Shown here piece by piece: positions 1,901-21,195 of a stretch of 64,000 nt of DNA. The notes under the pieces are model-generated. The model made no database searches. It worked only from the letters and a program-made list of their open reading frames with translations, and was not told the DNA's origin. The translations under genes and the position numbers were made by a program. Origin of the DNA: Acidimicrobiia bacterium (lineage in GTDB: Bacteria; Actinomycetota; Acidimicrobiia; Acidimicrobiales; SHLQ01); the NCBI GenBank assembly GCA_033344795.1, contig JAWPMS010000001.1, positions 4,152,757 to 4,216,756 on the forward strand. Reading direction: 5' to 3'. The number at the start of each line of letters is the position of its first letter. Position 1 is the stretch's first letter.

Positions 1901-2385
1901 CGCGCCGACGCGATCGTTTCATCAGTGGCCTCGCCCTGCTTGTCATCATCCTCGTATCGGTCGTACTGGGTGGGCTGGCGGCTGGCTACCGGCCAGTCAT
2001 CATCCAGACGGGCAGCATGGTCCCGACAGCTCCGCCGAAGTCGCTGATCATCGCGTCTCCTCGCGACGCGTCTGACATCGCCGTTGGAGACATCATCGTC
2101 ATGCGCCGCCCGGGCGCCACACCGGTCACCCATCGAATCATCGAAATCGAGGGCTCTGCCACCAATCGATTCGCCATCACGCAAGGTGACGCGAACGAAG
2201 GACCCGACGCCTCGCCGTACCCCCTCGACGGTGAAGATCTTGTCGCGAGATGGATCCGCCCAGGTTGGGGTGGAGCAATCCAATCACTGTTCCAACCTGG
2301 TATCGCTCTCGGCGTCATGGCGCTCGCCGTGCTGGCGCTTGTTTTTCAAGCACTTCGATTCATCTGGCGCAACCCATCGCCGATG
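1897..2385 (+). other. Signal peptidase I (S26B) module of the fusion protein
   Basis: aa 1-163: TM GLALLVIILVSVVLGGLAAG, the catalytic-type motifs GSM, THR and GDAN, and a second TM GIALGVMALAVLALVFQAL. Confidence 0.7.
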
Positions 2386-5300: not shown

Positions 5301-5454
5301 CACGCTCAGCGCCTGGGTCAACGTGCCGCTCCTGTCGTCGACCAGTGACACCGAGCTGTTCGTCTACTACGGCAACCCGTCCGCCGTCGACCAACAGGAC
5401 CCCGAAGCGGTCTTTGGACCGAACGCGGATCTCACCTTCTTGGGGGCCTCATGA
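1897..5454 (+). CDS. SipW-like (S26B, archaeal-type) signal peptidase I fused in frame to a large extracytoplasmic DUF2341/LamG passenger (1185 aa)
   Basis: The N-terminus has a TM segment plus QTGSMVPT (Ser), VTHRIIEI (His), TQGDAN and a C-terminal TM, as in SipW/Sec11-type peptidases. There is no stop codon before the ~1000-aa downstream region. The GTG start overlaps the upstream stop (GTGA). Confidence 0.75.
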   Translation: MTRRRDRFISGLALLVIILVSVVLGGLAAGYRPVIIQTGSMVPTAPPKSLIIASPRDASDIAVGDIIVMRRPGATPVTHRIIEIEGSATNRFAITQGDANEGPDASPYPLDGEDLVARWIRPGWGGAIQSLFQPGIALGVMALAVLALVFQALRFIWRNPSPMAVEAASSARVIADTLSKDAPTTSKPVKPIQGKKRRSRKPLVVAIFPLTAMFTTGVAWALFVSTDTVASNDFATAACFDAQLGSVQSGETIHAVNGNVSIPISAVDPTGSFVIASIRSASNEPADSVVQVQLGTGGTSVELDRLTDNGAPPPITVSWSVVEYTCGVTVQRGVANGNGSGQVDIPIATVDLATSFALASTSPAASATQFDADDSLLFELVSADTLRVRTAGAAIAATRSISWQVVSFDDPGDASIQTVTGSLGAAATTTTLALPSPVDPTSTFILASAATASTGADISERQLRSRLIDANTMEVSRLGSGTAMEISVQVVTLRDGTSVRHGFVDFAAGQPVRTVKIEPVDPQRSTALSTVVTPGVASGGQTDYTVDDLAGEASATFAITDPETLSVQRGSTASNASFGWQVIEWAGPGWWNPNYNFRQRIDVDTGSAAAPGEYTLPFTIDHAALVTAGLAQSDGSDVRVLRWDGTAWTELDRILDDGASWNHLATTLRFRTTDAIDADSTSTYWVYFGNTSPALAFADPENVWLLTEDFESGTLGDFEDRTGSTGWYAALPWTRRIPVSVPAGRTTAPLTDFPLLVSLTSADLASNAQADGSDIRFTASDGTTPLPHEIEGFDAGTGTLDAWVRIPTLDSATSTTIYLYYGAPDAPTQEDVRNTWSTEFGGAWHLSRDPAGTAPQADDSTVRNHDGLSRGAMTTSDLVPGLIGGAIDFDGVDDMFETDPFDLSVGGLTLSGWVRLDSYTTQPRIINKAYNPSNRVFELSVDGSNVRSRLVLDGSENLLLGSGDGVTLGAWHHLAMTWDGVTIKLYLNGVEVASRAASGTLASDPAMPVTIGGIESLNRQLDGLIDEVRIDRVGRSAAWIAASESNQRNPGAFHTFGPVETGSWLGQGTWTARKPIAIDADLVSADATDFTLLVEVIDPELQVGATASGNDLVFTDANGTTRLDHVVESWDDATGTLSAWVNVPLLSSTSDTELFVYYGNPSAVDQQDPEAVFGPNADLTFLGAS
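2476..2604 (+). other. Internal signal-peptide-like segment with a SipW-cognate motif, inside the fusion ORF
   Basis: GKKRRSRK (n-region), LVVAIFPLTAMFTTGVAWALF (h-region), VSTDTVASNDFATAA. 10 of 18 residues are identical to ALFTDQETVAGNAFATGT of TasA-like paralog 3. Confidence 0.6.
2635..3650 (+). repeat. Four divergent ~85-95-aa in-frame protein repeats of unknown family
   Basis: Each unit has (V/I)Q.G ... (I/L)P(I/V)..VD(P/L)..S(F/T).(I/L)AS ... (S/F)(W/V)(S/Q)V(V/I)(E/S/T). The units end in SWSVVEY, SWQVVSF, SVQVVTL and GWQVIEW. Confidence 0.55.
3664..5385 (+). other. Three DUF2341-like modules flanking one LamG/concanavalin-A-like module
   Basis: DUF2341-like modules: NYNFRQRIDV...SDGSDVRVLRWDG...YWVYFGN; WTRRIPVSV...ADGSDIRFTASDG...IYLYYG; WTARKPIAID...NDLVFTDANG...LFVYYGN. 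LamG: AIDFDGVDD...WHHLAMTWDG...LDGLIDEVRI. Confidence 0.6.
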
Positions 5455-5557: not shown

Positions 5558-6178
5558 ATGACCATCACGACTGAGCCCGAGGCTCCTGCGGTCAACAGAC
5601 GCAAGGGCAACGGCACGAAAATATTGGCAACACTTGCCGTGTTGTTCCTCGCAGGCACGATCTTTTCGATTGCTTCGCTTGCATTGTTCACCGACCAAGA
5701 GACTGTCGCTGGAAACGCGTTTGCAACAGGAACGGTCGACCTACTGGCGACGCCGGCAACGGCTGTGGTCACCGCAGCCGCGATGGCGCCCGGTGACCAG
5801 GTCACCGCGCCGCTCGACATCGCGAACAGCGGCTCATTGGAGCTGAGGTACTCAGCGACAACGACCACCACCGAAAACACGCTGGCTTCTCTGCTCGCGC
5901 TGACGGTGAAGACAGGAGTGACCGTGTGTGACGATGCCAACTGGGCCACCGATGGCACGGTCATCTACTCCGGAACCCTCGGGTCCACGGCAACTGCGCC
6001 TCTCTTTGGCTCCGCCGTGCAGGGTGCGCAAGGTGGCGACAGAGTGCTTGCCGCTGGCGCGAACGAAGCGTTGTGCATCAACGTGACATTGCCGCTCGCA
6101 ACCGGCAACGCCGCCCAGAACATCACCACCACTGCCACGTTCGCGTTCGACGCAGAACAAACAGCGAACAATCCATAA
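5558..6178 (+). CDS. TasA/camelysin-like exported protein, paralog 3 (most canonical)
   Basis: NRRKGNGTK, then ILATLAVLFLAGTIFSIASLALF, then TDQETVAGNAFATGTVDL. MAPGD..TAPLDIANSGSLELRY. C-terminal FAFDAEQ. Confidence 0.75.
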   Translation: MTITTEPEAPAVNRRKGNGTKILATLAVLFLAGTIFSIASLALFTDQETVAGNAFATGTVDLLATPATAVVTAAAMAPGDQVTAPLDIANSGSLELRYSATTTTTENTLASLLALTVKTGVTVCDDANWATDGTVIYSGTLGSTATAPLFGSAVQGAQGGDRVLAAGANEALCINVTLPLATGNAAQNITTTATFAFDAEQTANNP

Positions 6179-6201
6179 GCCCCGGCGGTAACAGCGTGGT
6201 G

Positions 6202-9200
6202 ATGACCCTGAGCGTTCACAGGAGGGCGGCGGCAGCCGCCCTCCTCTGCGCGCTCGCAGTCATTGTCACGATGAGCGCGGTTGCCGCGGCGAACGTTGCA
6301 CAAGACGACCCCACGGCAGTACCTGGCATCCCTCTCATCAGCGTCGATGGCGACGCCAAAGCCGAAGCAGGTCGACCGTATCTGCTCGACGTAACCGTCG
6401 AAGGCATCGACCAATCCCAAGTCTCCGAGTGGACGGTCTCGTGGGGTGATGGCACGGCTACCAAAGGCACAGGTTCACCTGGCATTGTCGAACACGTCTA
6501 CGAGCATGTCGGGTCCGCACACCAGATAACCGTGAGCGTTATCACCTCAGGCGGCGACACCCTCAGCAACGCCGCTCTTGTCATCTCCAACTACGACACC
6601 GCCAGGGCGCCAACACTCCATCGCATCACGGGCCAGCCGGCGTCAGACCAGCTGGTGGGCGACGCCACGGACAACATCGCATCGGTACTCGTTGGCGCCG
6701 ATGGAGTTCTCTACGCGATCGACGACGTTGCCAACACGATCCTTCGCTTTGATCTCGATCGGAAGACCCGATTCGAGGTGCCTCTCGACCGAGAATCGGT
6801 CGTCCGCCGACCCCGAGCCATGGCCTTCGACGCAGAGGGGCATCTTCTCGTGGCCGACGCAAGCTCGAACGCAATCCATCAGATCGACGTGGATAGTGGT
6901 CAGATCGTGCGAACGATCGCCGGCGACGAGCACCTCAACCGACCCAGCGCGTTGATCATCGGCCCACAGGGCGACCTCTATGTGACGGACGCTGCCGACG
7001 ACGACATCGAACGGTTCGATTTCACCACCGGTCGGCACGTCAGCACCTTTGCGACCTTCGAACCGGGAGCGACGCCAACCTCGCTCGTCTCGGGCCCCAA
7101 CGACACGTTGCTCGTGTCATTGCCAGGTGCCGGCCGAATCGCCTCGGTTTCCAGTTCCGGCCAGGTCGCCAATTTTGGAGCCGATGTCACCACACCAGAT
7201 CAACTCGCGGTTGGGCCCGATGGCGCGCTTTGGGTCTCCGACTACTGGAACGACACCGTCGAGCGCTTCGATCTGAAGTCAGGCGAGACGCTGGACCGAG
7301 AACCAATCGTTGAGGGCACTGCCGGCCCGCGGGGGTTGTCATTCGCACCCGATGTCTCGGTGACGGTCATCGCCCCTTCTGACGCGCCGAGCTCTGACCC
7401 GTCACCCGATGAGCTGACCGCACAAGAGTGGCGCGAGTCGTTGCCCGAGGATCAAAACATCGACGAGCTGATCTTCGTGGCCAACGATGGTGAAGCCGAG
7501 CCCCAGCTCGACTTCATTGCACAATCCGATGACTACATTGCCGTGATCGCCGACAACACCATCGAAGTGGCCCTCGATCAAGCAGAATCCGATCAACTCG
7601 TCACCATGGAGCTCGAGGACGCCACCGAAAAGCCTCCGTCCGGAGCATCGACGGACACCCGTGTCGCATTCGACGACGTCTACGACGGAATCGACGCGGT
7701 GTATTCCGACGACGAGGGTGAGCTCGAATACAGCTTCATCATCGAGCCCGGAGCGGATGTCGACGACATCTCACTGGACTTCGGTGGAGCGGAGACTCTT
7801 CAGATCACCGAACAAGGCGACCTGTTCATCGACGTGTCCGAGGGACCTGATCTACTCTCCACGGCACCCTTCACCTTCCAGTTCATCGATGGTCGACGAG
7901 TTGTCATCGAGAGCTCATACGTCATCCGACCGGACGGCAGGGTGGGATTTGGTCTCGGAGCGTACGACCCCACACGACCGGTCGTGATCGACCCAACGCT
8001 CACCGCTGCGACGAACCTCCTCATGGTCACCGGTACCGGCACTGCTGTCGGAACCGACGCCACCAAACAAGCCCTGTTTCAAAGCTGGGGCTGGACCGTC
8101 ACGCTCATCGACGACGACAGCGTCGGCTCCTTTGCTGGCGCCGCGGCTGCAAATGATGTGTTGTACGTGAGCGGCACGGCCCGATTCGACATCGCCTACG
8201 ACGTTCGAGATCTGGACATCGGCATCGTGAATGAGAATTTCTCGGCTTGGAACGGCCTACTCAACTACGGCTCTCAACCTCAAGCCTTCACCACAGGCAC
8301 AACCCTCAACATCGTCGACAACTCGCACTACATCACGTCACCGTTTGCCACTGGATCCTTGGCGATTCACAGCGTGGGTGATGACATCAACTACTGGCCG
8401 TCCGATAGCGCCCCGCTACCCGCTGGTGTCACCGTTCTGGCTGAATCGCCCACGTCCACCAATCATGAGGCCCTCCACGTCGCCGAGACTGGGACCACGT
8501 TGTATTCCGCCTTCACGGCCGTGAATCGCCGGGTCTGGTTCCCGAGTGACTACGCCGACCCGGCAAACTACACCACCGACTACGAGACGTTGCTGGAGCG
8601 CTCCCTCGACTGGGCTGCCGGGAACGACGCTCCGCCTGCCGCGCCTCAGTCCATCGCGGTGGCGAACCCCGACACTGCGTCAACAGCGCAGGATTTGGCC
8701 ACCACTCTCGACCCGAGTGCGAACGACGCCGATGCCGAGGGTGACCCGATCGTCGAGATCGACGTGACCGACCCAGCCAATGGCAGCGTGGTCATCAACG
8801 GGGACGAAACGGTGACGTACACCCCAGACCCTGGGTATACGGGATCTGACTCGTTCGACTATTGGGCGATCGACTCAGGCGCCGGTCTGACGAACTATTG
8901 GGGCTTGGCCGGAGGAGGCATCGATTCTGTCGGTTCTGCCAACGGCGCCTTGTCTGGCACCACGACGGTGCCCGGTGACTTCGGAGACGCCCTGTCCTTT
9001 AACGAGATCAACGACCGGGTGACCGTGCCTGACTTCGCCTATGGATCAGACTTCTCTCTGTCCTTCGAGTTCAAGCTAGACGACAACACCGGATCGCTGT
9101 TTCAGTACGTGTACAGCCATGGCGACATCAACGCGGTGAACTCGGTGAACGTCTTCATCAACGAGGCGTCGCACGGATCAGACCCCAACATCCTTCGTAC

Positions 9201-12200
9201 CGTCGTTCGCGATGGAAACGACACCTTGGACAACGCGGCCCTTCAGACCAGCATTGCTTCGTTTGTCGGTGACGGCTTGTGGCACACCTACACGGTGACC
9301 GCCGACAGTTCCGCCGGTCTCACGGTCTCGATCGATGGCGTCGCCGTCGCTACCGACGCAACGCGAGGTACAGGGGTCGTCGATCCCACGGGTTCCGCCT
9401 ACTTCGGGACTCGACAGGATCTCGCCGCTGACCGTTGGTACGGCGGAAGTCTCGACTCGGTCCAGATCTACAACCGGGCGTTGACGGGAAGTGAAGTCAC
9501 CGATCTTCACGCCGGCACGAACCGCAGCACTGTGTCGATAACGGTCGCTCCATGCACCGTTGACACAGACGGAGATGGCCTCTGGGACTGCGAAGAAGAT
9601 GCCAACACCGACGCCGACGGCGACCCCGCGACCAACCCCGGCCCTGACACCGACGGCGACACCACCCCCAACTACCTCGACAACGACGACGACGACGACG
9701 GAGCACTGACCTCGGCAGAGAACGCCGACCCCAACAGCGACGGCGACCCACGAGACGCCCAAGACACCGACCACGACGGCGAACCCGACTACCTCGACAC
9801 CGAGGCTGGTGCCTCCAGGACTCCGGTCGCGGCCGAGCAGAAGATCTCCAACACCTCCGGGGGTCTGACGGGCTCCTGGAGCGCCTCAGATTGGGCCGGC
9901 ACTGCGGTCGCATCTATCGGTGACCTCGACGGCGACGGCATCACCGACATCGCGGTTGGCACCAACGGAGATGACGATGGGGGTGCCAACCACGGCGCCG
10001 TCTGGGTGCTGTTCCTCAACGCCGACGGCACAGTGAGGGCCGAGCAGAAGATCTCCGACACCGCGGGCGGGTTCACCGGCACCCTCGAATCCGGGGACCA
10101 GTTCGGCTCTGCGCTGACCGGCCCCGGTGACATCGACGGGGACGGCATCCCAGACCTCGTGGTTGGTGCCCGACTCGACGACGACGGCGGTTCGGGGCGC
10201 GGCGCCGCCTACATCCTCTTCCTCAACACCGACGGCACCGTGCGAGCCGAACAGAAGATCAGCGACGCCCAGGGCGGGCTCGCCACGACCCTCGACACCA
10301 ATGACGAATTCGGCCACGCAGTCGAGGGCATCGGCGACCTCGACGGAGACGGCATTCCCGACATCGCCGTAGGTGCATGGGGCGACGACGACGGCGGTTC
10401 GGGGCGCGGCGCCGTCTACATCCTCTTCCTCAACAGCGATGGGACTGTGCGAGCCGAACAGAAGATCTCCGACATCAGCGGTGGGCTGGCCGCATCGATC
10501 CCCGACGGCAGCAACTTCGGCGTCGGCCTGGGCGACATCGGCGACGTGGACAGTGACGGGATCACCGATCTGGCCGTCGGTGCCTGGAACGACACCGACG
10601 GCGGCAGCGCACGCGGTGCGGTCTACGTTCTGATGCTGAACGCCGACGGCACCGTTGCGGGCGAACAGAAGATCTCGGCGACGGCCGGCGGCTTCGGCGG
10701 CACCCTTGACGCCAGCGACGACTTCGGCGCGGGGGTCAGCGGCATTGGGGACGTCGACGGCGACGGCACCCCCGACCTCGCTGTAGGTGCTCCTCGCGAT
10801 GATGACGGGGGTTCTTCACGGGGTGCGGTGTGGCTCCTGACGCTGAACACCGATGGCACCGTGGGCACGACGAGCAAGATCTCGTCCACCGCTGGTGGGC
10901 TCACGGGTCCCTTGGACGACAACGACCAGTTCGGCTACGAGGTCACCAGCCTCGGCGATCTCGACGACGACGGGTCCCTCAACCTTCTGGTCGGCGCCTG
11001 GGGCGACAGCGACGGCGCATCGGCCGCCGGCGCCGGCTACATCCTCGACCTGTCTCCTCCGTCCTCCACCGTCACTGTCAACTCGACTGGTGACCTGGGC
11101 GACGCCACTCCGGGCGATGGCTCGTGCGATACCGGATTCCTCAACAGCGAGACCAACACCGAATGCACGCTGCGCGCTGCCATCGAAGAAGCGAACGCGT
11201 CCGCGGCCATCGACACGATCCACCTTGACATCCCGACGTCAGATTCCGGCTACGCCGCAGCGCCGCTCGCCTTCACCATCACGCCCGGATCCGTTCTGCC
11301 CGCGATCACGTCGTCGGTCGTTCTCGATGCCACGACACAAAGCGAGTACGCAGGTCGCCCTGTGATCCAACTCGACGGAAAGGACGCGACAGGCGCGACG
11401 GCAGGCATCCTCATTCACGCGGACGACGTCACCGTGAGCGGGTTCATCGTGCACAGCTTTGACGATGAGGGGATCGAGGTCTCCAACTTCAGCAGCAGCG
11501 CTGACCGCAGCACAATCATCAACAACTGGATCGGTATCGACGCATCTGAGGCCACGCGGGCGAACCTCGGCGATGGCGTGCTGGTCACGAGCGGTTCCGC
11601 TGCCAACACCATCGGAAGCCCGGGCCAAGGCAACGTCATCAGCGGAAACGTGGGCGCCGGTGTCTTGATCCGCGGTGTCGACAGCGACGACAACGTCGTG
11701 CAGGCAAACCTCATCGGTGTCGGCTCGGACGGCTCCACAGCCGTTCCGAATGGCAGCGATGGTATCCAGATCAGCGACACCACGACAGGCAACCGAATCG
11801 GTGGCACGCTGGCGACAGAAGCCAACACAATCGCCAACAACGGTGGCGATGGCGTCGCCGTCCTTGCGACGGCGGGATCCGACAACGCCGTTCTCCGAAA
11901 CGAAATCCACTCCAACGCTGGCATGGGAATCGACATCGATCCCAATGGGGTCAACGCCAACGACCCAGGTGATACCGACGGTCCCGGCCCAAATGACTTG
12001 CTCAACTACCCATCCATCACGTCTGCGACGACGAGCGGCATCATTGCGATATTGAACGGCACCTACGACGTGCCGGCCGGGAGCTATCGCTTCGACTTCT
12101 ACAAAAACCCCTCGGGGGCTGACGCCAGCGGCTTCGGCGAGGGCGAGCAGTGGGTGGCGACATCCACGCTGAGTCACAGCGGCTCTGGGGCCGAAGGCTG

Positions 12201-15200
12201 GGGTGCAGCATTTGTCGGCGCGGTTGGCGACATCATCACCATCACTGTCACCGAGGATCTCGGCGGCGGGAACTACGGGTCCACTTCGGAGTTCTCGAGC
12301 GCCGCATCGGTCACAGCTCCAGCGGTCGTGGTCAACTCAACTGGCGATGCAGCGGACCAGACTCCGGGCGATGGATCGTGCGACACCGGCGGGGTGAATT
12401 CTCAACTCGCGACCGAATGCACCCTGCGCGCTGCCATCGAAGAAGCGAACGCGCTCGCCGGCGGCGACACGATCGAGTTCAACATGCCGAGCAGCGAATC
12501 GGGCCACGCGAGCGGCGTGTGGACGATCTCTCCAGCCACCATCTACCCAGAACTGACCGAACGGGTCGAGCTGGACGCATCGTCACAACCTGGTTTCGTT
12601 GGTACACCGATTGTGGAGCTCGATGGCTCATCCCTCTCGGTGTCCTCCGAGCACGGATTACAACTCGGAGTAGGCAGCGACGGGACGACCGTCCGCGGGC
12701 TCTCCATCAGCTCGTTCCCCGGCGCCGGGCTCTACCTCGAGGGTTCCGACAGCCACACCATCGCAGGAAACTACATCGGCCTCAAGGCCGATGGTTCGAC
12801 CGCTGCTGGCAACCGCTACGGCATGTACATGAGCGCCTCGTCGTCGACGACAATCGGCGGAACCACACCTGCCGATCGCAACGTGATCTCCGCCAACACG
12901 TTCTCCGGAGTCGCGGTCTACAACAGCATCGGCTTGGGCCTCGAATCGTTGGACACCGTGATCATCGGCAACTACATCGGCACCGACAGCACTGGAATGT
13001 TGGCCCGCGGCAACGCTCGCGACGGCCTGTTCGTCGTCAACGGCTCATCGCGCACTCAAGTCGGTGGGTCCTCCCCCGGCGAAGGGAACCTCATCTCGGC
13101 AAACACCGATGCAGGTGTCTACGTGGGCTCGGGTTCGATGGTCGACACCGTTGTCGTCGGTAACACGATTGGCGTGAGCGTCGATGAATCGATCGAGCTT
13201 CCCAACGAAATAGGCGTCGAGGTCGGTTGGTCGGAGCGCACAATCGTGCGAGACAACGTCATCGGGTCGGCGACCAGTCATGGTGTGCTGCTCAGTTCCG
13301 CGGACAACGCTGTCGTCGCTGGCAACACCATCGGCACCGATGCAGCGGGGTCTGCGGCGTGGACCATCGGTGGTCACGGCGTGTTGCTCGAGAACACGAG
13401 CGAGCTCAACATGATCGGCGGAACGCTCACCGCCGACGCCAACACCATCACGAACGCTGCACTCTCGGGCGTCGCTGTTCCCGCGACGGCGGGATCCAAC
13501 AACAGCATCCTGCGCAACGAGATCGCAGCAAACACGGGACTCGGCATCGACCTCGATGTCGACGGCGTGACTCCAAACAGCAGCGTTGACGGCTGGTTGG
13601 ACTATCCGGACATCACCTCGGTCGTTTCATCCGGCGGCACGCTCACCACCGAGTTCGACCTCGATGTTCCTGCGGGTGCCTACCGAATCGAGTTCTTCAA
13701 CAACCTCTCTGGGGCCGATGCCAGCGGCTTTGGCGAAGGCGAGACGTTCGTCCACGCCACTACGGCGACGCACACGGGCTCGGGAACCGAGTCATTCTCC
13801 GTCAACTTCGCAGGTTCGTTCGGCGACATCATCACCGCCACAGCGACGCAGGACTTGGGCGGAGGCTCATTCGGATCCACGTCAGAGTTCTCCGGTGCCG
13901 TAGCTGTCTTGCCCGTGGCCGTGGTGAACTCGACCGGCGATTTGGGCGATGCCACGCCCGGTGATGACATCTGCGACACCGGTGGCACCAACTCTGGGCT
14001 CGACGCCGAATGCACGCTGCGGGCAGCCATCGAGGAAGCCAATGCATCGGCTGACGTCGACACGATCGAGTTCGACATGCCAACGTCCGAGGCAGGCCAC
14101 TCAGCCGGCGTGTGGATGATCGAGCCAGGGACGCAGCTCCCGGAGATCACACAGGTCGTCATGCTCGACGCCAGCACTCAACCTGGATGGACCGCCACGC
14201 CGATCGTCGAGATCGACGGCAGCAGCGCAGGCGCGACCACCGATGGCCTTCTCATCAGTGGCGACGACGTCACCATCTCGGGCCTCGCAATCAACCGCTT
14301 TGCCGCGGACGGTGTCAAAGTCCTCGTTGGTGCCCAAAACACCACACTTCGCTCGAACCACATCGGCCTCGATGCGTCGGGTCTGATCGACAGAGGCAAT
14401 GGCGACCGAGGCGTCGACCTGCAAGCCGGGTCGGGTCCAACGACCGTCGGCGGCACGAACGCGATCGACCGCAACGTCATCTCCGGCAACGGCGACGACG
14501 GCATCATCATCTTTGGTTCCGACGACAACATCGTCATCAACAACCTCATCGGAACGGACGTGTCCGGCCTCTCTGCTATCCCGAATGCCGCAGATGGGGT
14601 CGTGCTCGCCAGTGGAAGCGCCGACAACACGATCGGCCAGCCCGGGTTCGGCAACGTCCTCTCGGGCAACGCCAACGATGGCATCGAAATCGACGACACG
14701 ACCGGCCCGAACACCATTCAGAGCAACATCATTGGGCTGGGACTCGACGGGGACGCCCTGGTGCCGAACGGTCGTTACGGCATCGTCCTCTACAACGGAG
14801 CGAACACCACCCAGATCGGTGGCGGCGGAGCCGATCAGGGCAATGTCATCTCCGGCAATGCCACCGACGGCATCTACATTGATGGCAACAACAACGCGGC
14901 CACCACTGCGAACGTCATCGAAGGCAACCTGATCGGCACCGACGGCACGGGCACCCTCGAACGGGGCAACGTTCGCTACGGGATCAGGGTCGACAATGCT
15001 GCGACGTCGACGGTCATCGGTGGCCCCGGGGCGGGAAACACGATCTCCGGCAATGGCGATGATGGCATCTATCTCTCGGATTCGGGGACAGACAACACGA
15101 TCATCCAGGCCAACCACATCGGTACGAATGCCGCCGGTGATGATGCGATCCCGAACGGCGATCGTGGAGTTCAGATCGAGTCGGGAGCGTCGTTCACACA

Positions 15201-18200
15201 AGTGGGTGGCGCGGGCGCAGGCGAGGGCAACGTGATCTCGGCAAACCTCGGCGATGGGGTGATCATCGCCGACTGGTTGGCGCTTGGAACCACCGGCACG
15301 GTCGTCGAAGGGAACTTGATCGGCGTTGAAGCCGACGGTTCGACGCCTCTTGGAAATGGCGGCCACGGAGTGCACGTCGACCCGGTCACCGGCAACCGTA
15401 TTGGCGGAACCGCTGTCGGCGCCGGAAATGTCATCGCCAACAACGGTGCGACCGGGACGCAGATGGCGCCGACCTCAGGCACGAATACCGTTCTCGGCAA
15501 CTCCATCTACGCGAATGCCGACATTGGATTGGGCCTCGGCTGGGATGGAGTGACCCCGAACGACCCCGGTGATGTGGATAGCGGACCCAACGGATTGCTC
15601 AACTTTCCCGAAGTCACCGCGGCGTCGGTGTCGGCCGGTTCGGTGACCGTCGACTTCGAGCTCGACGTACCCGCTGGCGATTACCGCATCGAGTTCTTCA
15701 CCAACCCTTCGGGCGCGGATCCGACGGGTTACGGAGAGGGTGAGGTCCTTGCGGACGCACTCACGATTTCTCACACGGGCTCGGGCGTCGAGTCATTCTC
15801 GACAAGCTTTGCCGGCGCGATCGGTGACGTGATCACCGCCACGGCGACAGAGGACCTCGGCGGATCTCATGGAGCCACGTCGGAATTCTCGGCAGCCGCG
15901 ACAGCCACCGCCACCGACACGATCGTCAACTCGACGGGCGACGCAGGCGACGCCGCTGTTGGCGACGGCGTTTGTGACACGGGGGCCCTCAACAGCGCCG
16001 GCGTGACGGAATGTACGCTCCGCGCCGCGGTGCAGGAGAGCAACAACCTCGGGGCGGCGGCGATCGTCTTTGACATCCCCGCTACCGAGTCCGGTCATGA
16101 TGCCGGTGTGTGGACCATCTCACCGAGCGCTCCATTCGACGACCTCACCGCTCCGGTGAGCATCGATGGTTCGACGCAACCCGGATGGAGCACCACGCCG
16201 GTCATCCAGATCGACGGGTCGGGATCCGGAGCGGCCGCAGACGGCTTCCGGCTGCTTACTGGTTCCGACGGTTCTGAGATCCGCAGCCTTTCAATTGGCA
16301 TCTACGACTCAGACGCGCTCGAGATCCAAAGCAATGATGTGGTCATCGCCGGCAACCACCTCGGCCTCGACGCTGCAGGCACAACTGCGACCCCCATGGC
16401 GACTGGGGCAGGAGTCAACATCTCCGGCGCAGCGCGGACCACGATTGGGGGATCGACCGCGGTTGACCGCAACGTTATTGCGGGTGGGCCCAACGGTGTC
16501 ATCGTCGGCGGTGCCTCGACCGACACCGTGATCATCGGCAACTACATCGGAACGGACGTGACGGGTTCGGCTACGGCTGTCACCTTCAGCCAATACAGCA
16601 TCTACGTTCTCGGCGGCAGCGCCGACACCAGGATCGGTGGACCGCTGACGACCGACCGCAACATCATCGCATCACGCGGGATCTACATCAGAGACGAAAC
16701 CTCCGACAACGTGCTGATCGAGAACAACTCGATCGGCGTGGGAGCGGATGGGACGAGCCCTGTCAGCGTGGCCTCACGCGCCATTCTCGTCTCGGGAGGC
16801 TCCGATGACATCGATGTGATCGACAACGTGATTGGCAACGCGTACCGCGCGGTCGAGATCAACGGCGCAACCACAAACAGCACGGTGCGGGGCAACACGA
16901 TCGGCACCGATGCAGGTTTGACAACCGACCATGGCACGACCGTGGAGGCCATCGAGATCAGCGGTGGCGCCGCCGGCATCCAGATCGGCGGCACGACGCC
17001 AGCGGAGGCCAACCGTATCCAGTTCGTCGGTCTTGGCTTCCCAGCGATCAGCGTCGCTGACGCCGCAACCGATGACGTGCACGTGATGGGCAATTCCATC
17101 CTGCATGATCACGGTGCCATCGACCTCGGAGCCGACGGCCCAACGTCCAACGACCCTGGCGACATCGACGGCGGCGCAAACGACCTGCTCAACTTCCCAA
17201 CTCTGACGGTGACCAACACGACCGGAAGCGGGCCGTTCACCGTCGACCTGGACGTCACTCTCGACACGGCGGCAGGTGATCATCGAATCGAGATCTACTC
17301 GAACGCTGACCCTGGATTCGGTGGGCTGGGCAAGGGCGAGGTTCTCGAGCACACGTTCACGTTCACACACACCGGCAGCGGCCCCGAAACCGTGTCGACG
17401 ACATATGTCGGCTCGTCGTCGACCGCGTTGTCCGCTACGGCGACCGAAGAGTTCGGTGGTGGCACATACGGGTCAACGTCGGAGATGTCACCGATTGCGG
17501 CCATCGCTGCAGACGCGGTCGTGAACTCGACCGGTGACTTGGGCGACGCCGACCTGAACGACGGACAGTGCGACACGGGCGGCACGAACAGCGACGGTGC
17601 CACCGAGTGCACGTTCCGGGCAGCGATCGAACAAACCAACCGGGCCATCGCCTCGAGAGTGGATTTCGCCATCCCGAACACAGACTCCGGCTACGACGTC
17701 GGCGGCTACTGGACCATCAACCAGGCCACCGACTACGAGGACATTTTCGCCTCGACGACCGTCGATGGCAGCACCCAGCCTGGATGGGACGGGTCACGTC
17801 CAGTCGTGTTCATCAACGACAACTCCTCGGGAACCGACCATTTGACCGCATTCGGGGACGACGTCACGCTGCGCTCGCTCGCCCTGGGAAACCCAGGTGA
17901 CGATGGGGTTCAAATCGAAGGCAACCGGGCCACGCTCGATGACCTGTGGATCGGCATCGACCCCACGGGAGCTGATGCAGGGCGTCCTGGAACGGGCAAC
18001 GAAGGTGTCATCGTCTACAACGGGGCCACAGACCTCCTGATTTCCGACAGCCGTATCGCCGGCTTCGACTCCGGCATCATCTCGAACTCTGGGACCATCG
18101 ACGCGACGGTCAGCAACACCGAGATCTTCAATAACCGCAACGGCGGTATCGCGTTCGACAATCTCGGCCGCGTCACCGCGATTGGCAACTCGATCCACGA

Positions 18201-21195
18201 CAACATCGGACTGGGCATCGACCTGAGCGTCAACAATGGCATCCCCCTACCGAACGATCCGGGCGATACCGACACCGGAGGCAACGACCTCCTGAACTAC
18301 CCCGTTCTCACCGGAGCCACGATCGGGGCTGGCTCCCTCGACATCACCTACGACCTCGACGTCCCTGCAGGCACGTACCGGATCGAGTTCTTCGACAACG
18401 CAGCGCCCGACCCGTCTGGCAACGGCGAGGGGGAAACGTTCGTAGCGTCGGCGACGCTCACCCACGGCGGAGGAGCGGCGTCGTATCTCACGACAATTCC
18501 GGGCGTGGTGGGCGACGTCATCACCGCAACGGCCACCCCCGATCTCGGCGGAGGAACCTACGAGGGGACATCGGAGTTCTCCAACGCACTCGCCATCGGG
18601 GTGGTGTTCGTGAACTCGACAGCCGATGCCTCTGATGCTTCGGCTGGCGATGGCGCCTGTGACACCGGGGGCCTCAACAGCGACGGGAACGCTGAGTGCA
18701 CCTTGCGAGCAGCCATCGAGGAGACCGCTGCGAACTCGGGCTACGACCACATCCGCTTCACGATCCCCGAGACAGATCCCGGCTTTGTTGCTGGGGCGCC
18801 CTCGTACTGGACGATCTCGCCAGCAACCACGCTCCCGTTTGTCTCCGACACGATCGAGATCGATGCAACGACCCAACCGGGGTGGGTCGACAGTCCGGTC
18901 ATCGAACTCGATGGGTCTGGCGTGGTGAGCGCTGGCGCCGACGGCATCAATTTGGCGACGGGGATGACTCTACGGGGTTTCTCCATCACGGGGTGGCTCG
19001 ACGACGGTGCGTTCAGCGACCAGGACGACATCGTCGTGGCTGGCAACTGGTTCGGCATCTCGCCCGACGGTACCCCGCTCGCCAATCAGGGCACTGATCT
19101 CGTTCTCTATGGCGCAAGTGATGGCGCGACGATCGGCGGTCCCGACGCAGCCGACACCAACATCTTTGCCGCCGGTGGCTCCGAGGACGGAGTCATGCTC
19201 AGCGGCGATACAACGAACGCCGTCGTCGAGAACAACCGATTCGGCGTCGCTGCTGATGGGGTGACCGGCCTTGGAACAGCCACTGCGGAACTTCTGGTCA
19301 TCGTCGACAACGCTTCGGACATTCTGGTGGTCGACAACCAGTTCGGTGACGCACCCAACGCGTCTGTGACCTTGTGGGCCGATCCGACGAACGTCACCAT
19401 CGTCGGCAACATCTTCGGCACGGATGACACGGGAACGGCGGTTCTCCCCGTGGGCCAAGCCGTGTATGCGCAAGCCGCCGGCAGCGCACGATTCGGCGGG
19501 ACCACCTCGAGCGAGTGGAACACGATCCGCAACGTCCTCTGGCAGGCGGTCTTGCTCGACGCAGGCCACACCGGGTCCTTCAGCTACCTCGGAAACTCGA
19601 TGACCGGTTCCGGCCTGTATGGGATCGACCTGAGCGGAGACGGAACCACATCCAATGATGCTGGTGATGCTGACAGCGGTCCGAACGACAACCTGAACGT
19701 CCCCGAGATCTCATCGGTCGTCGAGAGCGGTGGCACCGTGCGGGTCTCCTTTGGGCTCGACGTACCGGCGGGCACCTACCGGATCGAAGCGTTCACGAAC
19801 CCGAGCGGCGCACATCCGACCGGGTTCGGCGAGGGCGAGGTCTTCGAAACATCGGCGACGATCACGCACGCGGGCTCCGGTCGACAGAGCTACGAGGTCA
19901 CGTTCCCCGGAAGTATCGGCGAGCTGGTCTCGTTGACGACGACGCAAGATCTTGGTGGCGGACTGTTCGGCGCCACGTCGGAGTTCTCACAGACCGTTCA
20001 AGCAACCGACCCCGCCCTCATCCTCGAGGACGACCGCTCAGAACGACGTTCCGACCTCGCCAGTAGCGGCGGGGTGAGCATCAGCGGTGACAGCGCGCCT
20101 GGTCAGGCAGGGCTCGCCGTGCACTTCGACGGGTCCAACGACCGTTTCGTCGGCCCAGCGGTCGACATCACCGACGCGGCGCTCACGATGTATGCCAGCT
20201 TCAATGCCGACGGGCTCACCGGCGACCCTGTCCTGCTCTCGAAGAGGACCAGCGCCGGATCGCCGATCTACGAGCTCTCGATCGATTCGGGGACCGGCGA
20301 GGTCGTCGCCGAAGTACGCACGAACAGTGGCCCAGCGGTCGCACGGGGCGGTTCCATCGCGGCTGGGACCTGGCATCAGGCGCTCGCCACGTGGGACGGC
20401 GCCGAGTTGGTCTTGTTCGTCGACGGGCTCGAGGTCGATCGCGTCGCCCTCACCGGAGCCCTTACGGTCGATGTGGCGACCGATGTCATCATCGGCAGCA
20501 CGAGCACGAACTCGGCTCCGTTCGATGGTCTGATCGACGATGTCCGCGTCTCTCATGAAGCCACGGATAGCGCTACCGCAGACGCCTTGGCGCAAAACCA
20601 AACCATGGTGGGGTTCGTCTCGGTGGGCGGCGAACAGACATCGGCACCCTCGCCGTGGACGACGAGCAGCGTGCAGACAAGGTCCGGCTCCTTCGCGCTG
20701 TCGGCTCCGGAAACGAGCGGATCCGGCGCCGCAGCATGGGCGGTGGCCACTGGTATCGACGAACCTGGACTCGTCTTTGAATCTTGGTGGTGGTTCAGCT
20801 CGAACACCGGCGTCGATTTGTCCTCTGGCACCCGTGCGGGTGAGGCGCCAACCGATCAGTACGAAGCTGCACTGACATCGCCGTCGGGTTGGGAACTCCG
20901 CCAACGAAGCGGCGGCACAGGGTCGTTCGACGCTCCCGCCGCCGGCTCGCCAACCGCTGGTGCGTGGGTCAACGTCGAGATTCGAACAGATCAGTTCGGA
21001 GCCACTCGCCTGTTCATCGATGGCAGCGAAGTGACGACCACAACTCCGCAGGGTTCTGCGCTGTTGAGCGGCTCGATGGCGCTACGCGCAGGACTGCTCC
21101 CCACTGGCCAGACCTGGTACATCGACGATGCTCGCGGCCGAAAGCTGGTCACGCCGGAGCCCGTCACCTCAGTGGGCCCCCTCGACAGGAATTGA
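6202..21195 (+). CDS. Giant secreted multidomain protein (~4997 aa): PKD, NHL propeller, cadherin-like, LamG, Ca-binding repeats, FG-GAP propeller, six CSLREA/beta-helix modules, two C-terminal ConA-like domains
   Basis: Single open frame. Sec-type signal peptide MTLSVHRRAAAAALLCALAVIVTMSAVAAA. ATG 6202 lies 23 nt after the TasA-like stop; the ORF-track start at 6073 overlaps that gene. Domain motifs are listed under the sub-features and findings. Confidence 0.9.
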   Translation: MTLSVHRRAAAAALLCALAVIVTMSAVAAANVAQDDPTAVPGIPLISVDGDAKAEAGRPYLLDVTVEGIDQSQVSEWTVSWGDGTATKGTGSPGIVEHVYEHVGSAHQITVSVITSGGDTLSNAALVISNYDTARAPTLHRITGQPASDQLVGDATDNIASVLVGADGVLYAIDDVANTILRFDLDRKTRFEVPLDRESVVRRPRAMAFDAEGHLLVADASSNAIHQIDVDSGQIVRTIAGDEHLNRPSALIIGPQGDLYVTDAADDDIERFDFTTGRHVSTFATFEPGATPTSLVSGPNDTLLVSLPGAGRIASVSSSGQVANFGADVTTPDQLAVGPDGALWVSDYWNDTVERFDLKSGETLDREPIVEGTAGPRGLSFAPDVSVTVIAPSDAPSSDPSPDELTAQEWRESLPEDQNIDELIFVANDGEAEPQLDFIAQSDDYIAVIADNTIEVALDQAESDQLVTMELEDATEKPPSGASTDTRVAFDDVYDGIDAVYSDDEGELEYSFIIEPGADVDDISLDFGGAETLQITEQGDLFIDVSEGPDLLSTAPFTFQFIDGRRVVIESSYVIRPDGRVGFGLGAYDPTRPVVIDPTLTAATNLLMVTGTGTAVGTDATKQALFQSWGWTVTLIDDDSVGSFAGAAAANDVLYVSGTARFDIAYDVRDLDIGIVNENFSAWNGLLNYGSQPQAFTTGTTLNIVDNSHYITSPFATGSLAIHSVGDDINYWPSDSAPLPAGVTVLAESPTSTNHEALHVAETGTTLYSAFTAVNRRVWFPSDYADPANYTTDYETLLERSLDWAAGNDAPPAAPQSIAVANPDTASTAQDLATTLDPSANDADAEGDPIVEIDVTDPANGSVVINGDETVTYTPDPGYTGSDSFDYWAIDSGAGLTNYWGLAGGGIDSVGSANGALSGTTTVPGDFGDALSFNEINDRVTVPDFAYGSDFSLSFEFKLDDNTGSLFQYVYSHGDINAVNSVNVFINEASHGSDPNILRTVVRDGNDTLDNAALQTSIASFVGDGLWHTYTVTADSSAGLTVSIDGVAVATDATRGTGVVDPTGSAYFGTRQDLAADRWYGGSLDSVQIYNRALTGSEVTDLHAGTNRSTVSITVAPCTVDTDGDGLWDCEEDANTDADGDPATNPGPDTDGDTTPNYLDNDDDDDGALTSAENADPNSDGDPRDAQDTDHDGEPDYLDTEAGASRTPVAAEQKISNTSGGLTGSWSASDWAGTAVASIGDLDGDGITDIAVGTNGDDDGGANHGAVWVLFLNADGTVRAEQKISDTAGGFTGTLESGDQFGSALTGPGDIDGDGIPDLVVGARLDDDGGSGRGAAYILFLNTDGTVRAEQKISDAQGGLATTLDTNDEFGHAVEGIGDLDGDGIPDIAVGAWGDDDGGSGRGAVYILFLNSDGTVRAEQKISDISGGLAASIPDGSNFGVGLGDIGDVDSDGITDLAVGAWNDTDGGSARGAVYVLMLNADGTVAGEQKISATAGGFGGTLDASDDFGAGVSGIGDVDGDGTPDLAVGAPRDDDGGSSRGAVWLLTLNTDGTVGTTSKISSTAGGLTGPLDDNDQFGYEVTSLGDLDDDGSLNLLVGAWGDSDGASAAGAGYILDLSPPSSTVTVNSTGDLGDATPGDGSCDTGFLNSETNTECTLRAAIEEANASAAIDTIHLDIPTSDSGYAAAPLAFTITPGSVLPAITSSVVLDATTQSEYAGRPVIQLDGKDATGATAGILIHADDVTVSGFIVHSFDDEGIEVSNFSSSADRSTIINNWIGIDASEATRANLGDGVLVTSGSAANTIGSPGQGNVISGNVGAGVLIRGVDSDDNVVQANLIGVGSDGSTAVPNGSDGIQISDTTTGNRIGGTLATEANTIANNGGDGVAVLATAGSDNAVLRNEIHSNAGMGIDIDPNGVNANDPGDTDGPGPNDLLNYPSITSATTSGIIAILNGTYDVPAGSYRFDFYKNPSGADASGFGEGEQWVATSTLSHSGSGAEGWGAAFVGAVGDIITITVTEDLGGGNYGSTSEFSSAASVTAPAVVVNSTGDAADQTPGDGSCDTGGVNSQLATECTLRAAIEEANALAGGDTIEFNMPSSESGHASGVWTISPATIYPELTERVELDASSQPGFVGTPIVELDGSSLSVSSEHGLQLGVGSDGTTVRGLSISSFPGAGLYLEGSDSHTIAGNYIGLKADGSTAAGNRYGMYMSASSSTTIGGTTPADRNVISANTFSGVAVYNSIGLGLESLDTVIIGNYIGTDSTGMLARGNARDGLFVVNGSSRTQVGGSSPGEGNLISANTDAGVYVGSGSMVDTVVVGNTIGVSVDESIELPNEIGVEVGWSERTIVRDNVIGSATSHGVLLSSADNAVVAGNTIGTDAAGSAAWTIGGHGVLLENTSELNMIGGTLTADANTITNAALSGVAVPATAGSNNSILRNEIAANTGLGIDLDVDGVTPNSSVDGWLDYPDITSVVSSGGTLTTEFDLDVPAGAYRIEFFNNLSGADASGFGEGETFVHATTATHTGSGTESFSVNFAGSFGDIITATATQDLGGGSFGSTSEFSGAVAVLPVAVVNSTGDLGDATPGDDICDTGGTNSGLDAECTLRAAIEEANASADVDTIEFDMPTSEAGHSAGVWMIEPGTQLPEITQVVMLDASTQPGWTATPIVEIDGSSAGATTDGLLISGDDVTISGLAINRFAADGVKVLVGAQNTTLRSNHIGLDASGLIDRGNGDRGVDLQAGSGPTTVGGTNAIDRNVISGNGDDGIIIFGSDDNIVINNLIGTDVSGLSAIPNAADGVVLASGSADNTIGQPGFGNVLSGNANDGIEIDDTTGPNTIQSNIIGLGLDGDALVPNGRYGIVLYNGANTTQIGGGGADQGNVISGNATDGIYIDGNNNAATTANVIEGNLIGTDGTGTLERGNVRYGIRVDNAATSTVIGGPGAGNTISGNGDDGIYLSDSGTDNTIIQANHIGTNAAGDDAIPNGDRGVQIESGASFTQVGGAGAGEGNVISANLGDGVIIADWLALGTTGTVVEGNLIGVEADGSTPLGNGGHGVHVDPVTGNRIGGTAVGAGNVIANNGATGTQMAPTSGTNTVLGNSIYANADIGLGLGWDGVTPNDPGDVDSGPNGLLNFPEVTAASVSAGSVTVDFELDVPAGDYRIEFFTNPSGADPTGYGEGEVLADALTISHTGSGVESFSTSFAGAIGDVITATATEDLGGSHGATSEFSAAATATATDTIVNSTGDAGDAAVGDGVCDTGALNSAGVTECTLRAAVQESNNLGAAAIVFDIPATESGHDAGVWTISPSAPFDDLTAPVSIDGSTQPGWSTTPVIQIDGSGSGAAADGFRLLTGSDGSEIRSLSIGIYDSDALEIQSNDVVIAGNHLGLDAAGTTATPMATGAGVNISGAARTTIGGSTAVDRNVIAGGPNGVIVGGASTDTVIIGNYIGTDVTGSATAVTFSQYSIYVLGGSADTRIGGPLTTDRNIIASRGIYIRDETSDNVLIENNSIGVGADGTSPVSVASRAILVSGGSDDIDVIDNVIGNAYRAVEINGATTNSTVRGNTIGTDAGLTTDHGTTVEAIEISGGAAGIQIGGTTPAEANRIQFVGLGFPAISVADAATDDVHVMGNSILHDHGAIDLGADGPTSNDPGDIDGGANDLLNFPTLTVTNTTGSGPFTVDLDVTLDTAAGDHRIEIYSNADPGFGGLGKGEVLEHTFTFTHTGSGPETVSTTYVGSSSTALSATATEEFGGGTYGSTSEMSPIAAIAADAVVNSTGDLGDADLNDGQCDTGGTNSDGATECTFRAAIEQTNRAIASRVDFAIPNTDSGYDVGGYWTINQATDYEDIFASTTVDGSTQPGWDGSRPVVFINDNSSGTDHLTAFGDDVTLRSLALGNPGDDGVQIEGNRATLDDLWIGIDPTGADAGRPGTGNEGVIVYNGATDLLISDSRIAGFDSGIISNSGTIDATVSNTEIFNNRNGGIAFDNLGRVTAIGNSIHDNIGLGIDLSVNNGIPLPNDPGDTDTGGNDLLNYPVLTGATIGAGSLDITYDLDVPAGTYRIEFFDNAAPDPSGNGEGETFVASATLTHGGGAASYLTTIPGVVGDVITATATPDLGGGTYEGTSEFSNALAIGVVFVNSTADASDASAGDGACDTGGLNSDGNAECTLRAAIEETAANSGYDHIRFTIPETDPGFVAGAPSYWTISPATTLPFVSDTIEIDATTQPGWVDSPVIELDGSGVVSAGADGINLATGMTLRGFSITGWLDDGAFSDQDDIVVAGNWFGISPDGTPLANQGTDLVLYGASDGATIGGPDAADTNIFAAGGSEDGVMLSGDTTNAVVENNRFGVAADGVTGLGTATAELLVIVDNASDILVVDNQFGDAPNASVTLWADPTNVTIVGNIFGTDDTGTAVLPVGQAVYAQAAGSARFGGTTSSEWNTIRNVLWQAVLLDAGHTGSFSYLGNSMTGSGLYGIDLSGDGTTSNDAGDADSGPNDNLNVPEISSVVESGGTVRVSFGLDVPAGTYRIEAFTNPSGAHPTGFGEGEVFETSATITHAGSGRQSYEVTFPGSIGELVSLTTTQDLGGGLFGATSEFSQTVQATDPALILEDDRSERRSDLASSGGVSISGDSAPGQAGLAVHFDGSNDRFVGPAVDITDAALTMYASFNADGLTGDPVLLSKRTSAGSPIYELSIDSGTGEVVAEVRTNSGPAVARGGSIAAGTWHQALATWDGAELVLFVDGLEVDRVALTGALTVDVATDVIIGSTSTNSAPFDGLIDDVRVSHEATDSATADALAQNQTMVGFVSVGGEQTSAPSPWTTSSVQTRSGSFALSAPETSGSGAAAWAVATGIDEPGLVFESWWWFSSNTGVDLSSGTRAGEAPTDQYEAALTSPSGWELRQRSGGTGSFDAPAAGSPTAGAWVNVEIRTDQFGATRLFIDGSEVTTTTPQGSALLSGSMALRAGLLPTGQTWYIDDARGRKLVTPEPVTSVGPLDRN
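6337..7360 (+). other. PKD-like domain followed by NHL-type beta-propeller repeats
   Basis: PKD: WTVSWGDGT...HVYEHVGSAHQITVSV. NHL: LYAIDDVANTILRFD, HLLVADASSNAIHQID, DLYVTDAADDDIERFD, ALWVSDYWNDTVERFD. Confidence 0.6.
8944..9515 (+). other. LamG/concanavalin-A-like domain 1 of the giant protein
   Basis: ALSFNEINDRVTVPDF...FSLSFEFK...WHTYTVTADS...GGSLDSVQIYNRALTGSEV. Confidence 0.6.
9553..9803 (+). repeat. Thrombospondin-type-3-like Asp-rich Ca-binding repeats
   Basis: DTDGDGLWDCEEDANTDADGD...DTDGDTTPNYLDNDDDDDG...DPNSDGDPRDAQDTDHDGEPDYLD. Confidence 0.6.
9826..11055 (+). repeat. FG-GAP/integrin-alpha-like propeller repeats, period ~69 aa (six full units plus a partial one)
   Basis: Recurrent (D/N)(Q/E/D)FG...GD(L/I/V)D(G/S/D)DG(I/T)(P/T)D(L/I).VGA..DDDGGS.RGA.(Y/W)(I/V)L.LN.DGTV..EQKIS. 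Confidence 0.75.
11077..20010 (+). repeat. Six tandem CSLREA-cap, parallel beta-helix (PbH1) and C-terminal beta-sandwich modules
   Basis: Module starts (VNST(G/A)D) are at 11077, 12331, 13924, 15925, 17521 and 18610. Each has EC T(L/F)RAA(I/V)(E/Q)E(A/S/T)N, then N.IG...G.(S/T)GN-type helix turns, then NDPGD.D.G.N(D/G)LLN(Y/F)P ... YRIEFF.NPSGAD..G(F/Y)GEGE ... TSEFS. Confidence 0.8.
20110..21160 (+). other. LamG-like domain 2 plus a further ConA-like C-terminal domain; no LPXTG-type sorting signal seen
   Basis: AVHFDGSNDRFVGP...WHQALATWDG...FDGLIDDVRVSHEA, then WVNVEIRTDQFGATRLFIDGSEV...WYIDDARG. The protein ends ...VTSVGPLDRN. Confidence 0.55.

Follow-up and report, generated by a model that had tools for sequence, protein, structure and literature searches.

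We analysed a 64,000-nucleotide (nt) stretch of an Acidimicrobiia genome (contig JAWPMS010000001.1, positions 4,152,757 to 4,216,756; hereafter the window), which has ~62% G+C and contains chromosomal genes such as dnaE and trpE, focusing on one giant open reading frame (ORF) that encodes a predicted secreted protein of 4,997 amino acids (aa). An earlier sequence-only reading of this DNA had described the product as a single-ORF ectoprotein with an unusual mosaic of eukaryote-like adhesion modules and no recognisable anchor. We found that the giant belongs to a family of proteins of 2.4-5 thousand amino acids (kaa) that end in a conserved C-terminal tail, and that its gene closes a run of genes for TasA-like proteins and a fused SipW-type signal peptidase. 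What is new lies in the family, the tail and the strict linkage to this operon, the giant alone being an ordinary bacterial giant exoprotein. The genes of the run are:

22..651, + strand, GGDEF-EAL gene truncated by the window edge, 3′ end only
651-1262, + strand, orfA, small secreted protein with only its signal region in common with TasA-like proteins
1241-1900, + strand, orfB, small secreted protein with a Peptidase_M73 match
1897..5454, + strand, SipW-type (archaeal/endoplasmic reticulum-type) signal peptidase fused to a DUF2341-LamG-DUF2341 ectodomain, 1,185 aa (TIGR02228, 66.9 bits)
5558..6178, + strand, orfD, TasA/camelysin-like subunit of 206 aa with a TasA-type signal peptide (Peptidase_M73, 38.6 bits), directly upstream of the giant
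6202..21195, + strand, giant ORF, 4,997 aa plus stop

The frame of the giant is unbroken from 6073 to 21195; with the ATG at 6202 as start codon it encodes 4,997 aa and contains no internal stop, as the sequence-only reading had claimed. This start codon lies 24 nt past the stop codon of orfD, and G+C content at third codon positions (GC3) is 0.76, in line with the adjoining genes. Rfam and tRNA scans of the window returned no matches. We confirm the giant ORF as a real, intact secreted-protein gene. The gene is rich in repeats and its source is probably a metagenome-type assembly, both of which could speak for an assembly chimera or a pseudogene; we nevertheless regard such an origin as highly improbable. 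The internal DNA repeats are only 60-77% identical, making repeat collapse or a chimeric assembly unlikely, no stop interrupts the 4,997 codons, coding GC3 is uniform, and independently assembled relatives of 2.4-4.1 kaa show the same head-to-tail logic and the same C-terminus.

A genome search with the SipW fusion identified 21 Acidimicrobiales loci (49-69% identity over the full length) with the common gene order EAL-orfA-orfB-SipW fusion-orfD. These loci were searched with 10-kb flanks, and in all 16 that extend past orfD a very large ORF built of the same modules follows directly; it often leaves the flank at >3,000 aa, and the C-terminus is visible in few loci (L016, L007, L008). Module order and copy number of the giants vary between genomes. 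Look-ups based on the tail gave a concordant picture, with the giant adjoining a SipW::DUF2341-LamG gene and a Peptidase_M73 gene in 4/4 informative contigs (a fifth contig begins at the giant and was left out of this count), and with one locus (L125) presenting these three genes as a minimal core. In nearly all loci the giant closes the run and the genes downstream of it differ between genomes, while the upstream genes in relatives often encode a family-2 glycosyltransferase (GT2) with a PilZ domain and a GGDEF-EAL protein. The co-occurrence with SipW/TasA-like genes that the sequence-only reading had put forward for checking is thus strongly positive and turns the question of how the giant is retained into a specific testable hypothesis.

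The last 203 aa of the giant retrieved 141 representatives, 39 of them at E<=1e-30, and these strong matches are all C-terminal, ending at the last residue of the protein. The full-length family members retrieved are 2,448-4,114 aa long, the giant of the window being the largest seen. Their N-termini vary, opening with PKD-NHL, DUF7948-SBBP, two glutamine amidotransferase (GATase)-like domains, LamG, or a CSLREA module at once. All members examined (12 further members, nine of them full-length, and the window giant) end in (CSLREA-helix-Ig)n-LamG-TAIL, Ig denoting an immunoglobulin-like domain and TAIL the family-defining last domain. The giant has an N-terminal signal peptide and a CSLREA-beta-helix-'TSEFS' module directly before LamG-TAIL, its TAIL comes last and ends in the pattern W[YF][VI]DD.R.R[KR][LY][VI].[PD]EP..[ST].G.[LI][DE]Rx-stop, and its gene adjoins a SipW::DUF2341-LamG fusion and a Peptidase_M73 gene. 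The mosaic is therefore one arrangement of a module kit common to this 2.4-5 kaa family and not unique, and the label eukaryote-like is uninformative, PKD, NHL, Big_9, LamG_3, FG-GAP and beta-helix modules all being ordinary in bacterial giant exoproteins. A reading of the giant as an orphan was also considered and rejected; its first 1,100 aa gave domain-level matches only (<=22% query coverage), and the relatives were found via the SipW fusion and the tail. The C-terminal part of the giant comprises:

11059..19989, + strand, six CSLREA modules of 358-661 aa each (11059-12297, 12319-13893, 13909-15891, 15913-17490, 17509-18582 and 18598-19989)
20131..20562, + strand, C-terminal Laminin_G_3 domain, aa 4644-4787 (87 bits)
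20599..21192, + strand, TAIL domain, aa 4800-4997 (~200 aa; LamG_3 25.1 bits against 27.6, sub-threshold)
21115..21192, + strand, conserved terminal motif WYIDDARGRKLVTPEPVTSVGPLDRN-stop

The family-wide form of the terminal motif, WY[VI]DD.R.R[KR]L[VI].PEP..S.GPLDRx, after which the protein ends, is present in 37/38 representatives with the stop 0-1 residue past 'DRx'. Conservation of the tail peaks in its last 25 columns, where the majority frequency averages 0.70 versus 0.52-0.65 elsewhere. The last 408 aa of the giant match the end of a partial ORF of 3,699 aa on a metagenome contig at 61% identity and the C-terminal end of the giant in L016 at 39% identity, and the terminal peptide ...DDARGRKLVTPEPV.S.GPLDR. 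is near-unchanged between the three. The closest paralogue of the C-terminal LamG is the LamG of the SipW-fused protein (hhalign probability 99.8; 30% identity, E 3.5e-20), the hhalign match between the tail of the giant and the SipW fusion being confined to this LamG part. The C-terminus had been presented as lacking any recognisable signal; far from featureless, it belongs to a family-defining LamG plus tail with a conserved terminal motif.

No anchor of a known kind was recognised in the giant, in agreement with the sequence-only reading. LPxT[GAS] sortase motifs occur nowhere in it, and the only strongly hydrophobic 19-mers lie in the signal peptide, leaving no C-terminal transmembrane (TM) or hydrophobic stretch. 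There is no lipobox [LVI][ASTVI][GAS]C, Cys16 being preceded by A-L-L. NCBIfam sorting-signal models gave no match even at E<=5, and the tail, which contains 'PEP', ends ...GPLDRN without a TM segment and so does not qualify as PEP-CTERM, GlyGly-CTERM or PGF-CTERM. Models of known wall-binding domains likewise found no match, nor did HemolysinCabind or related models of the RTX/type 1 secretion system (T1SS) class. As for the TasA/TapA/TafC class, the giant shows no Peptidase_M73 match, no donor-strand motif and no BLAST similarity to orfA, orfB or orfD.

The six CSLREA modules share a layout in which a cap is followed by a variable-length right-handed beta-helix, an N-D-P-G-D-x-D linker and a ~100-aa 'TSEFS' beta domain, each module closing with TSEF/MS. 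The caps, at aa 1655, 2073, 2604, 3271, 3803 and 4166, carry the sole Cys pair of their modules, and six CT[LF]RAA motifs were identified in the giant, each with a Cys 13 residues upstream. CSLREA_Nterm (TIGR04214) matches at 65.9 bits against a cut-off of 25, and Beta_helix and NosD families match within the modules. For the 'TSEFS' domain no relative was found in Pfam, or in the PDB using a profile of the six copies, and a PDB sequence search with the whole beta-helix module gave nothing useful. We know of no established function for the CSLREA family. The giant shares the caps, in six copies, with this secreted family (TIGR04214) and differs from other CSLREA proteins in repeating the cap-helix-Ig unit in tandem and adding the LamG-TAIL end. 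A CSLREA-domain protein has been reported as a secreted substrate of the Acinetobacter type 2 secretion system (T2SS) (PMC9245377); the literature mentions the domain merely in passing, as a secreted protein.

We scanned the whole giant and ten segments of it with Pfam and NCBIfam models. The features identified ahead of the CSLREA modules are:

6202..6291, + strand, Sec-type signal peptide, aa 1-30, predicted to be cut between VAAA and N (read from sequence)
6331..6561, + strand, PKD-like domain, aa 44-120 (PKD_4 22.5 bits against a cut-off of 27, E 1.2e-4; sub-threshold)
6649..7401, + strand, NHL-type beta-propeller, aa ~150-400 (Vgb_lyase 67.8 bits, NHL 40.6 bits)
7621..8001, + strand, DUF7948, aa 474-600 (117 bits; C-terminal half of the model)
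8011..8619, + strand, alpha/beta domain without Cys, aa 604-806, predicted class-I GATase-like (flavodoxin-like) fold
8623..8883, + strand, bacterial Ig/cadherin-like domain, aa 808-894 (Big_9, Cadherin_5)
9010..9501, + strand, Laminin_G_3/ConA-like domain, aa 937-1100 (51.4 bits)
9547..9801, + strand, Asp-rich DxDxDG-type stretch with one Cys pair, aa 1116-1200, thrombospondin-type-3-like by motif only
9814..11061, + strand, FG-GAP beta-propeller, aa 1205-1620 (101.7 bits, 5-6 stretches; six 69-aa units)

Nine of the 11 items in the domain list and order given by the sequence-only reading are backed by family models, two of these below threshold (PKD-like and C-terminal ConA-like). The Sec signal peptide it named is confirmed on reading the sequence: a basic n-region (MTLSVHRR) precedes an Ala/Leu/Val core of ~22 residues, which leads to VAAA and, past the predicted cut, NVAQDD. 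Relatives of the giant carry AxA-type signal peptides of similar kind, and a TasA-type A-F-x-D motif was not found in the signal peptide region of the giant. The NHL propeller has a PDB sequence match to virginiamycin B lyase (E 1.4e-6), and what had been called a beta-rich module is DUF7948. The thrombospondin-type-3-like repeats survive as motifs, 12 of the DxDxDG type being spread across the whole giant, and not as a family assignment, the TSP_3 model having no match in the giant at E<=1; the Asp-rich stretch gave weak BamM/CglD matches and, in relatives, always comes directly ahead of the FG-GAP propeller. This propeller has tandem repeats of integrin type above the model threshold, its units recurring at DNA level with a 207-nt period and 61-77% identity.

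The region that the sequence-only reading had left unnamed is alpha/beta as proposed and can now be given a predicted fold. Residues 598-815 have no Pfam or NCBIfam match, and a homologue search with the domain (aa 604-806) found only six. An AlphaFold2 (AF2) model reached medium confidence (predicted local distance difference test (pLDDT) 71.8, predicted template modelling score (pTM) 0.78), and its Foldseek matches in the PDB were GATase subunits (E 7e-5, template modelling score (TM) ~0.5) and also the N-terminal domain of IFT52. The match to class I glutamine amidotransferases stands at fold level only, the Cys-His-Glu triad being incomplete; the missing cysteine excludes glutaminase activity and the domain is predicted to be a non-catalytic GATase-like scaffold. 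One of its six homologues (P0021) lies in a protein whose N-terminus bears a prepilin-type cleavage/methylation signal (PF07963), so the GATase-like domain is used on type IV pilin-like proteins as well.

The mature giant has a mass of ~501 kDa, a calculated pI near 4, 0.4% Lys and 9.9% Asp. Lys is strongly depleted relative to DnaE of the same window (4.8%), Asp compares with 8.6% in DnaE, and Arg is retained at 2.7%. The depletion of Lys and high Asp content may be an adaptation of exoproteins, for example to protease resistance or Ca2+ binding.

Within the operon, the best PDB matches of orfD are TasA structures (8aur/5of1, E ~0.01), and orfD is 52-77% identical in relatives. In the SipW fusion the peptidase forms the first ~170 residues, with the motifs GSM.P, THR and GDAN. 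The ectodomain opens (aa ~195-245, nt ~2479-2631) with its own TasA-type signal peptide, consisting of KKRRSRK, a hydrophobic stretch and ALFVSTDTVASNDFATA; this internal signal region can be aligned to the signal regions of orfB and orfD, and L002, L004, L008 and L019 conserve it. From these features the fusion may cleave itself, freeing a DUF2341-LamG protein of ~960 aa with a donor-strand-like N-terminus, and the freed ectodomain would be a TapA/TafC-like accessory subunit, a better candidate for this role than the giant. The upstream GGDEF-EAL protein of relatives (L007:5258-8527; also L014 and L021) has an N-terminal SipW-like domain in which the motifs GSM.P, THR and KGDAN look intact, followed by several TM segments. 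This domain was seen by tblastn (29-33% identity) and alignment, Pfam being silent at E<=0.001, and on its motifs we regard it as the second signal-peptidase-like domain of the locus. The GT2-PilZ gene, which follows a cellulose-synthase-like logic, lies upstream of the GGDEF-EAL gene (L007:2086-4689, L129:1-442), the equivalent region falling outside the window. With both of these genes upstream in relatives, the locus looks like a matrix unit of exopolysaccharide (EPS), fibre and adhesin linked to cyclic di-GMP (c-di-GMP).

The ORF, domains, family, synteny and tail conservation are established by the sequence data, and we infer the secretion route, binding functions and docking through the tail. 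We interpret the giant, at about even confidence, as a secreted, non-covalently retained matrix adhesin or cross-linker of the TasA-like fibre system, docked via its conserved C-terminal module. In the proposed mechanism the very acidic protein of ~500 kDa would be Sec-exported, its gene being the last in a biofilm-matrix operon conserved among Acidimicrobiales. The three small TasA-like proteins of this operon would form donor-strand fibres, processed by the dedicated SipW-type peptidase fused to DUF2341-LamG, and in relatives the operon would be coupled to the GGDEF-EAL protein and the PilZ-bearing glycosyltransferase. The variable N-terminal and central modules (PKD, NHL, FG-GAP, cadherin-like Ig, LamG, GATase-like and six beta-helix rods) would provide reach and bind glycans or surfaces, and the invariant LamG, TAIL and terminal motif would hold non-covalently to the fibre, the SipW-fused LamG protein or the exopolysaccharide, such C-terminal docking taking the place of a sortase or membrane anchor. 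Docking to a product of its own operon is suggested because the tail is invariant while the rest of the giant is freely shuffled, and because the tail LamG is closest to the LamG of the SipW-fused protein. More tentatively, and with low probability, LamG and TAIL with the terminal ...R.R[KR]LV.PEP..S.GPLDRx may be a previously unrecognised non-covalent docking or sorting module by which, in monoderm Acidimicrobiia, adhesins of half a megadalton are attached to TasA-type fibres or to the SipW-fused ectodomain in the membrane. Such a module would be a third display route for giant proteins, besides sortase and S-layer-homology-type wall binding, and the locus would hold the first TasA-like fibre system with a dedicated giant cargo.

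Several observations weigh against the interpretation of the giant as a docked matrix adhesin. The family was gathered through the tail, making the invariance of the tail partly circular; AF2 modelling of the TAIL domain from 14 sequences gave a pLDDT of 39.8 and no usable model, leaving docking without structural support; and the terminal motif could be no more than the strand that completes a ConA-like sandwich. Lacking both a TasA-like domain and a donor-strand motif, the giant is not a TapA/TafC-type fibre subunit. Beta-helix (CASH-type) modules can be enzymes and not binders. In L124 the giant lies upstream of the cluster, not downstream, and the 24-nt gap is all from which we infer co-transcription with the upstream genes.

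Three other explanations of the protein itself have to be weighed. The giant could be a free-standing cell-surface coat protein or adhesin, functionally unrelated to the fibre genes and retained either by an N-terminal signal-anchor that stays uncleaved or through LamG/ConA domains that bind wall glycopolymers. Its signal peptide has a long hydrophobic core (~22 residues), the giant has no other anchor, and LamG/ConA-like domains are commonly glycan-binding; yet this explanation has to contend with the AxA cleavage site in the giant and its relatives, leaves the strict linkage to SipW/TasA genes unexplained, and appears unlikely. It is similarly improbable that the giant is a secreted multi-enzyme or lectin array whose six beta-helix (CASH/NosD-like) modules are lyases, hydrolases or epimerases acting on a GT2-PilZ exopolysaccharide or on environmental glycans. 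Beta_helix and NosD matches, the Vgb_lyase-like propeller and the linked GT2-PilZ gene would be expected of such an array, but no polysaccharide lyase (PL), glycoside hydrolase (GH) or epimerase family matched at any threshold, and beta-helix length is free to vary among modules and relatives, as would be expected of a spacer rod more than of an active site.

The remaining explanation places the giant at the tip of the fibre as an adhesin or initiator, analogous to TapA, TafC or AbpB and joined covalently or by strand complementation. Its gene does adjoin a TasA-like gene, and it has LamG domains, as does TafC (PMC11821415). Against this, the giant has neither a TasA-like domain nor a donor-strand motif, and the SipW-fused ectodomain, with its TasA-type signal peptide and motif ALFVSTDTVASNDFATA, is the better candidate; we consider a tip role quite unlikely.

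Related systems have been described elsewhere. Bacillus TasA fibres form by donor-strand exchange (PMC9674648), TapA being one precedent for an accessory protein in TasA-type fibre systems (PMC10151520, PMC9674648). As in the B. subtilis tapA-sipW-tasA operon, the locus encodes a SipW-type peptidase with Peptidase_M73 subunits bearing a characteristic signal peptide; here, however, the peptidase carries a fused DUF2341-LamG ectodomain of ~960 aa, the small subunits are encoded by three genes, an exoprotein of 2.4-5 kaa without TasA/TapA homology is a fixed neighbour, and GGDEF-EAL and GT2-PilZ genes are linked. AbpB is a TapA-like protein of the Pyrobaculum bundling pili (ABP) (PMC9245690), and the haloarchaeal Tat-fimbriae (tafi) have a dedicated signal peptidase I (TafD), minor adhesin subunits and a LamG-like tip in TafC (PMC11821415). 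These systems share with ours the logic of a TasA-like or donor-strand fibre, a dedicated peptidase and LamG adhesin domains, whereas their small accessory proteins, of about 17-40 kDa, carry a donor strand, and the giant has neither a donor-strand motif nor a TasA-like domain. We found no description of TasA loci in Acidimicrobiia in a literature search.

Among secreted matrix proteins more generally, Pseudomonas CdrA (a beta-helix that binds Psl) and Vibrio RbmC/Bap1 (a propeller plus lectin) are controlled together with c-di-GMP-regulated EPS and are retained by matrix binding. The retention proposed for the giant would be the same, matrix binding without a covalent anchor. There is no sequence kinship with these proteins, however, which use two-partner secretion (TPS) or T2SS in diderms, are much smaller and have no linkage to a TasA-type fibre. 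The giant RTX adhesins of diderms (LapA, MpIBP) combine conserved ends with ligand-binding modules and a repetitive, Ca-binding stalk that is long and variable, the same overall logic as in the window giant. In the latter we detected neither RTX repeats nor a T1SS signal nor a periplasmic retention module, and its host is a monoderm actinobacterium.

Marine, freshwater, soil and wastewater communities are rich in Acidimicrobiia, which are barely cultivated, and to our knowledge nothing is known of how they build biofilms or flocs. The locus is a concrete conserved candidate for a matrix system in which a giant adhesin and TasA-like fibres are combined with a fused SipW peptidase, a PilZ glycosyltransferase and c-di-GMP enzymes. 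It would carry TasA-type fibre biology beyond Bacillus and the few archaea studied so far into Actinomycetota, where both the peptidase fusion and the partner are unusual. Its value lies in the family and its genomic context rather than in the giant protein by itself.

Downstream of the giant, one further gene was identified:

21308-23671, orfE, with a signal peptide, an unassigned beta-rich region of ~450 aa, a match to an RGI_lyase-like beta-sheet and several Cys-bounded ~82-aa repeats

By eye there are three to four such repeats, at 22914-23405, and orfE has no anchor. Two of them are 92-100% identical in DNA (246-nt period), and being near-identical their copy number could be misassembled. 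We considered orfE as a conserved partner of the giant and rejected it, the gene being absent downstream in L059 and the downstream genes differing in L125-L129.

Certain loci among the relatives call for comment. The closest (L001, CAXMRH010000059.1; SipW fusion 69% identical, full synteny) is labelled 'Chthoniobacterales' (Verrucomicrobiota) and is probably mis-binned, since all other relatives are Acidimicrobiales. In two metagenome-assembled genomes (L010, L013) the SipW fusion and the giant are split over several ORFs in different frames with homology continuing across the breaks, and these splits are most likely assembly indel errors rather than pseudogenes. A region of ~345 aa in the SipW fusion (aa 244-588, window 2626-3660), for which there is no Pfam model, recurs at 31-34% identity inside the giants of relatives (L005:19074-20054, L008:18679-19659, L014:17584-18684, L015:18979-19965) and is not present in the giant of the window itself. 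Being common to the SipW fusion and to these giants, it points to one shared module pool.

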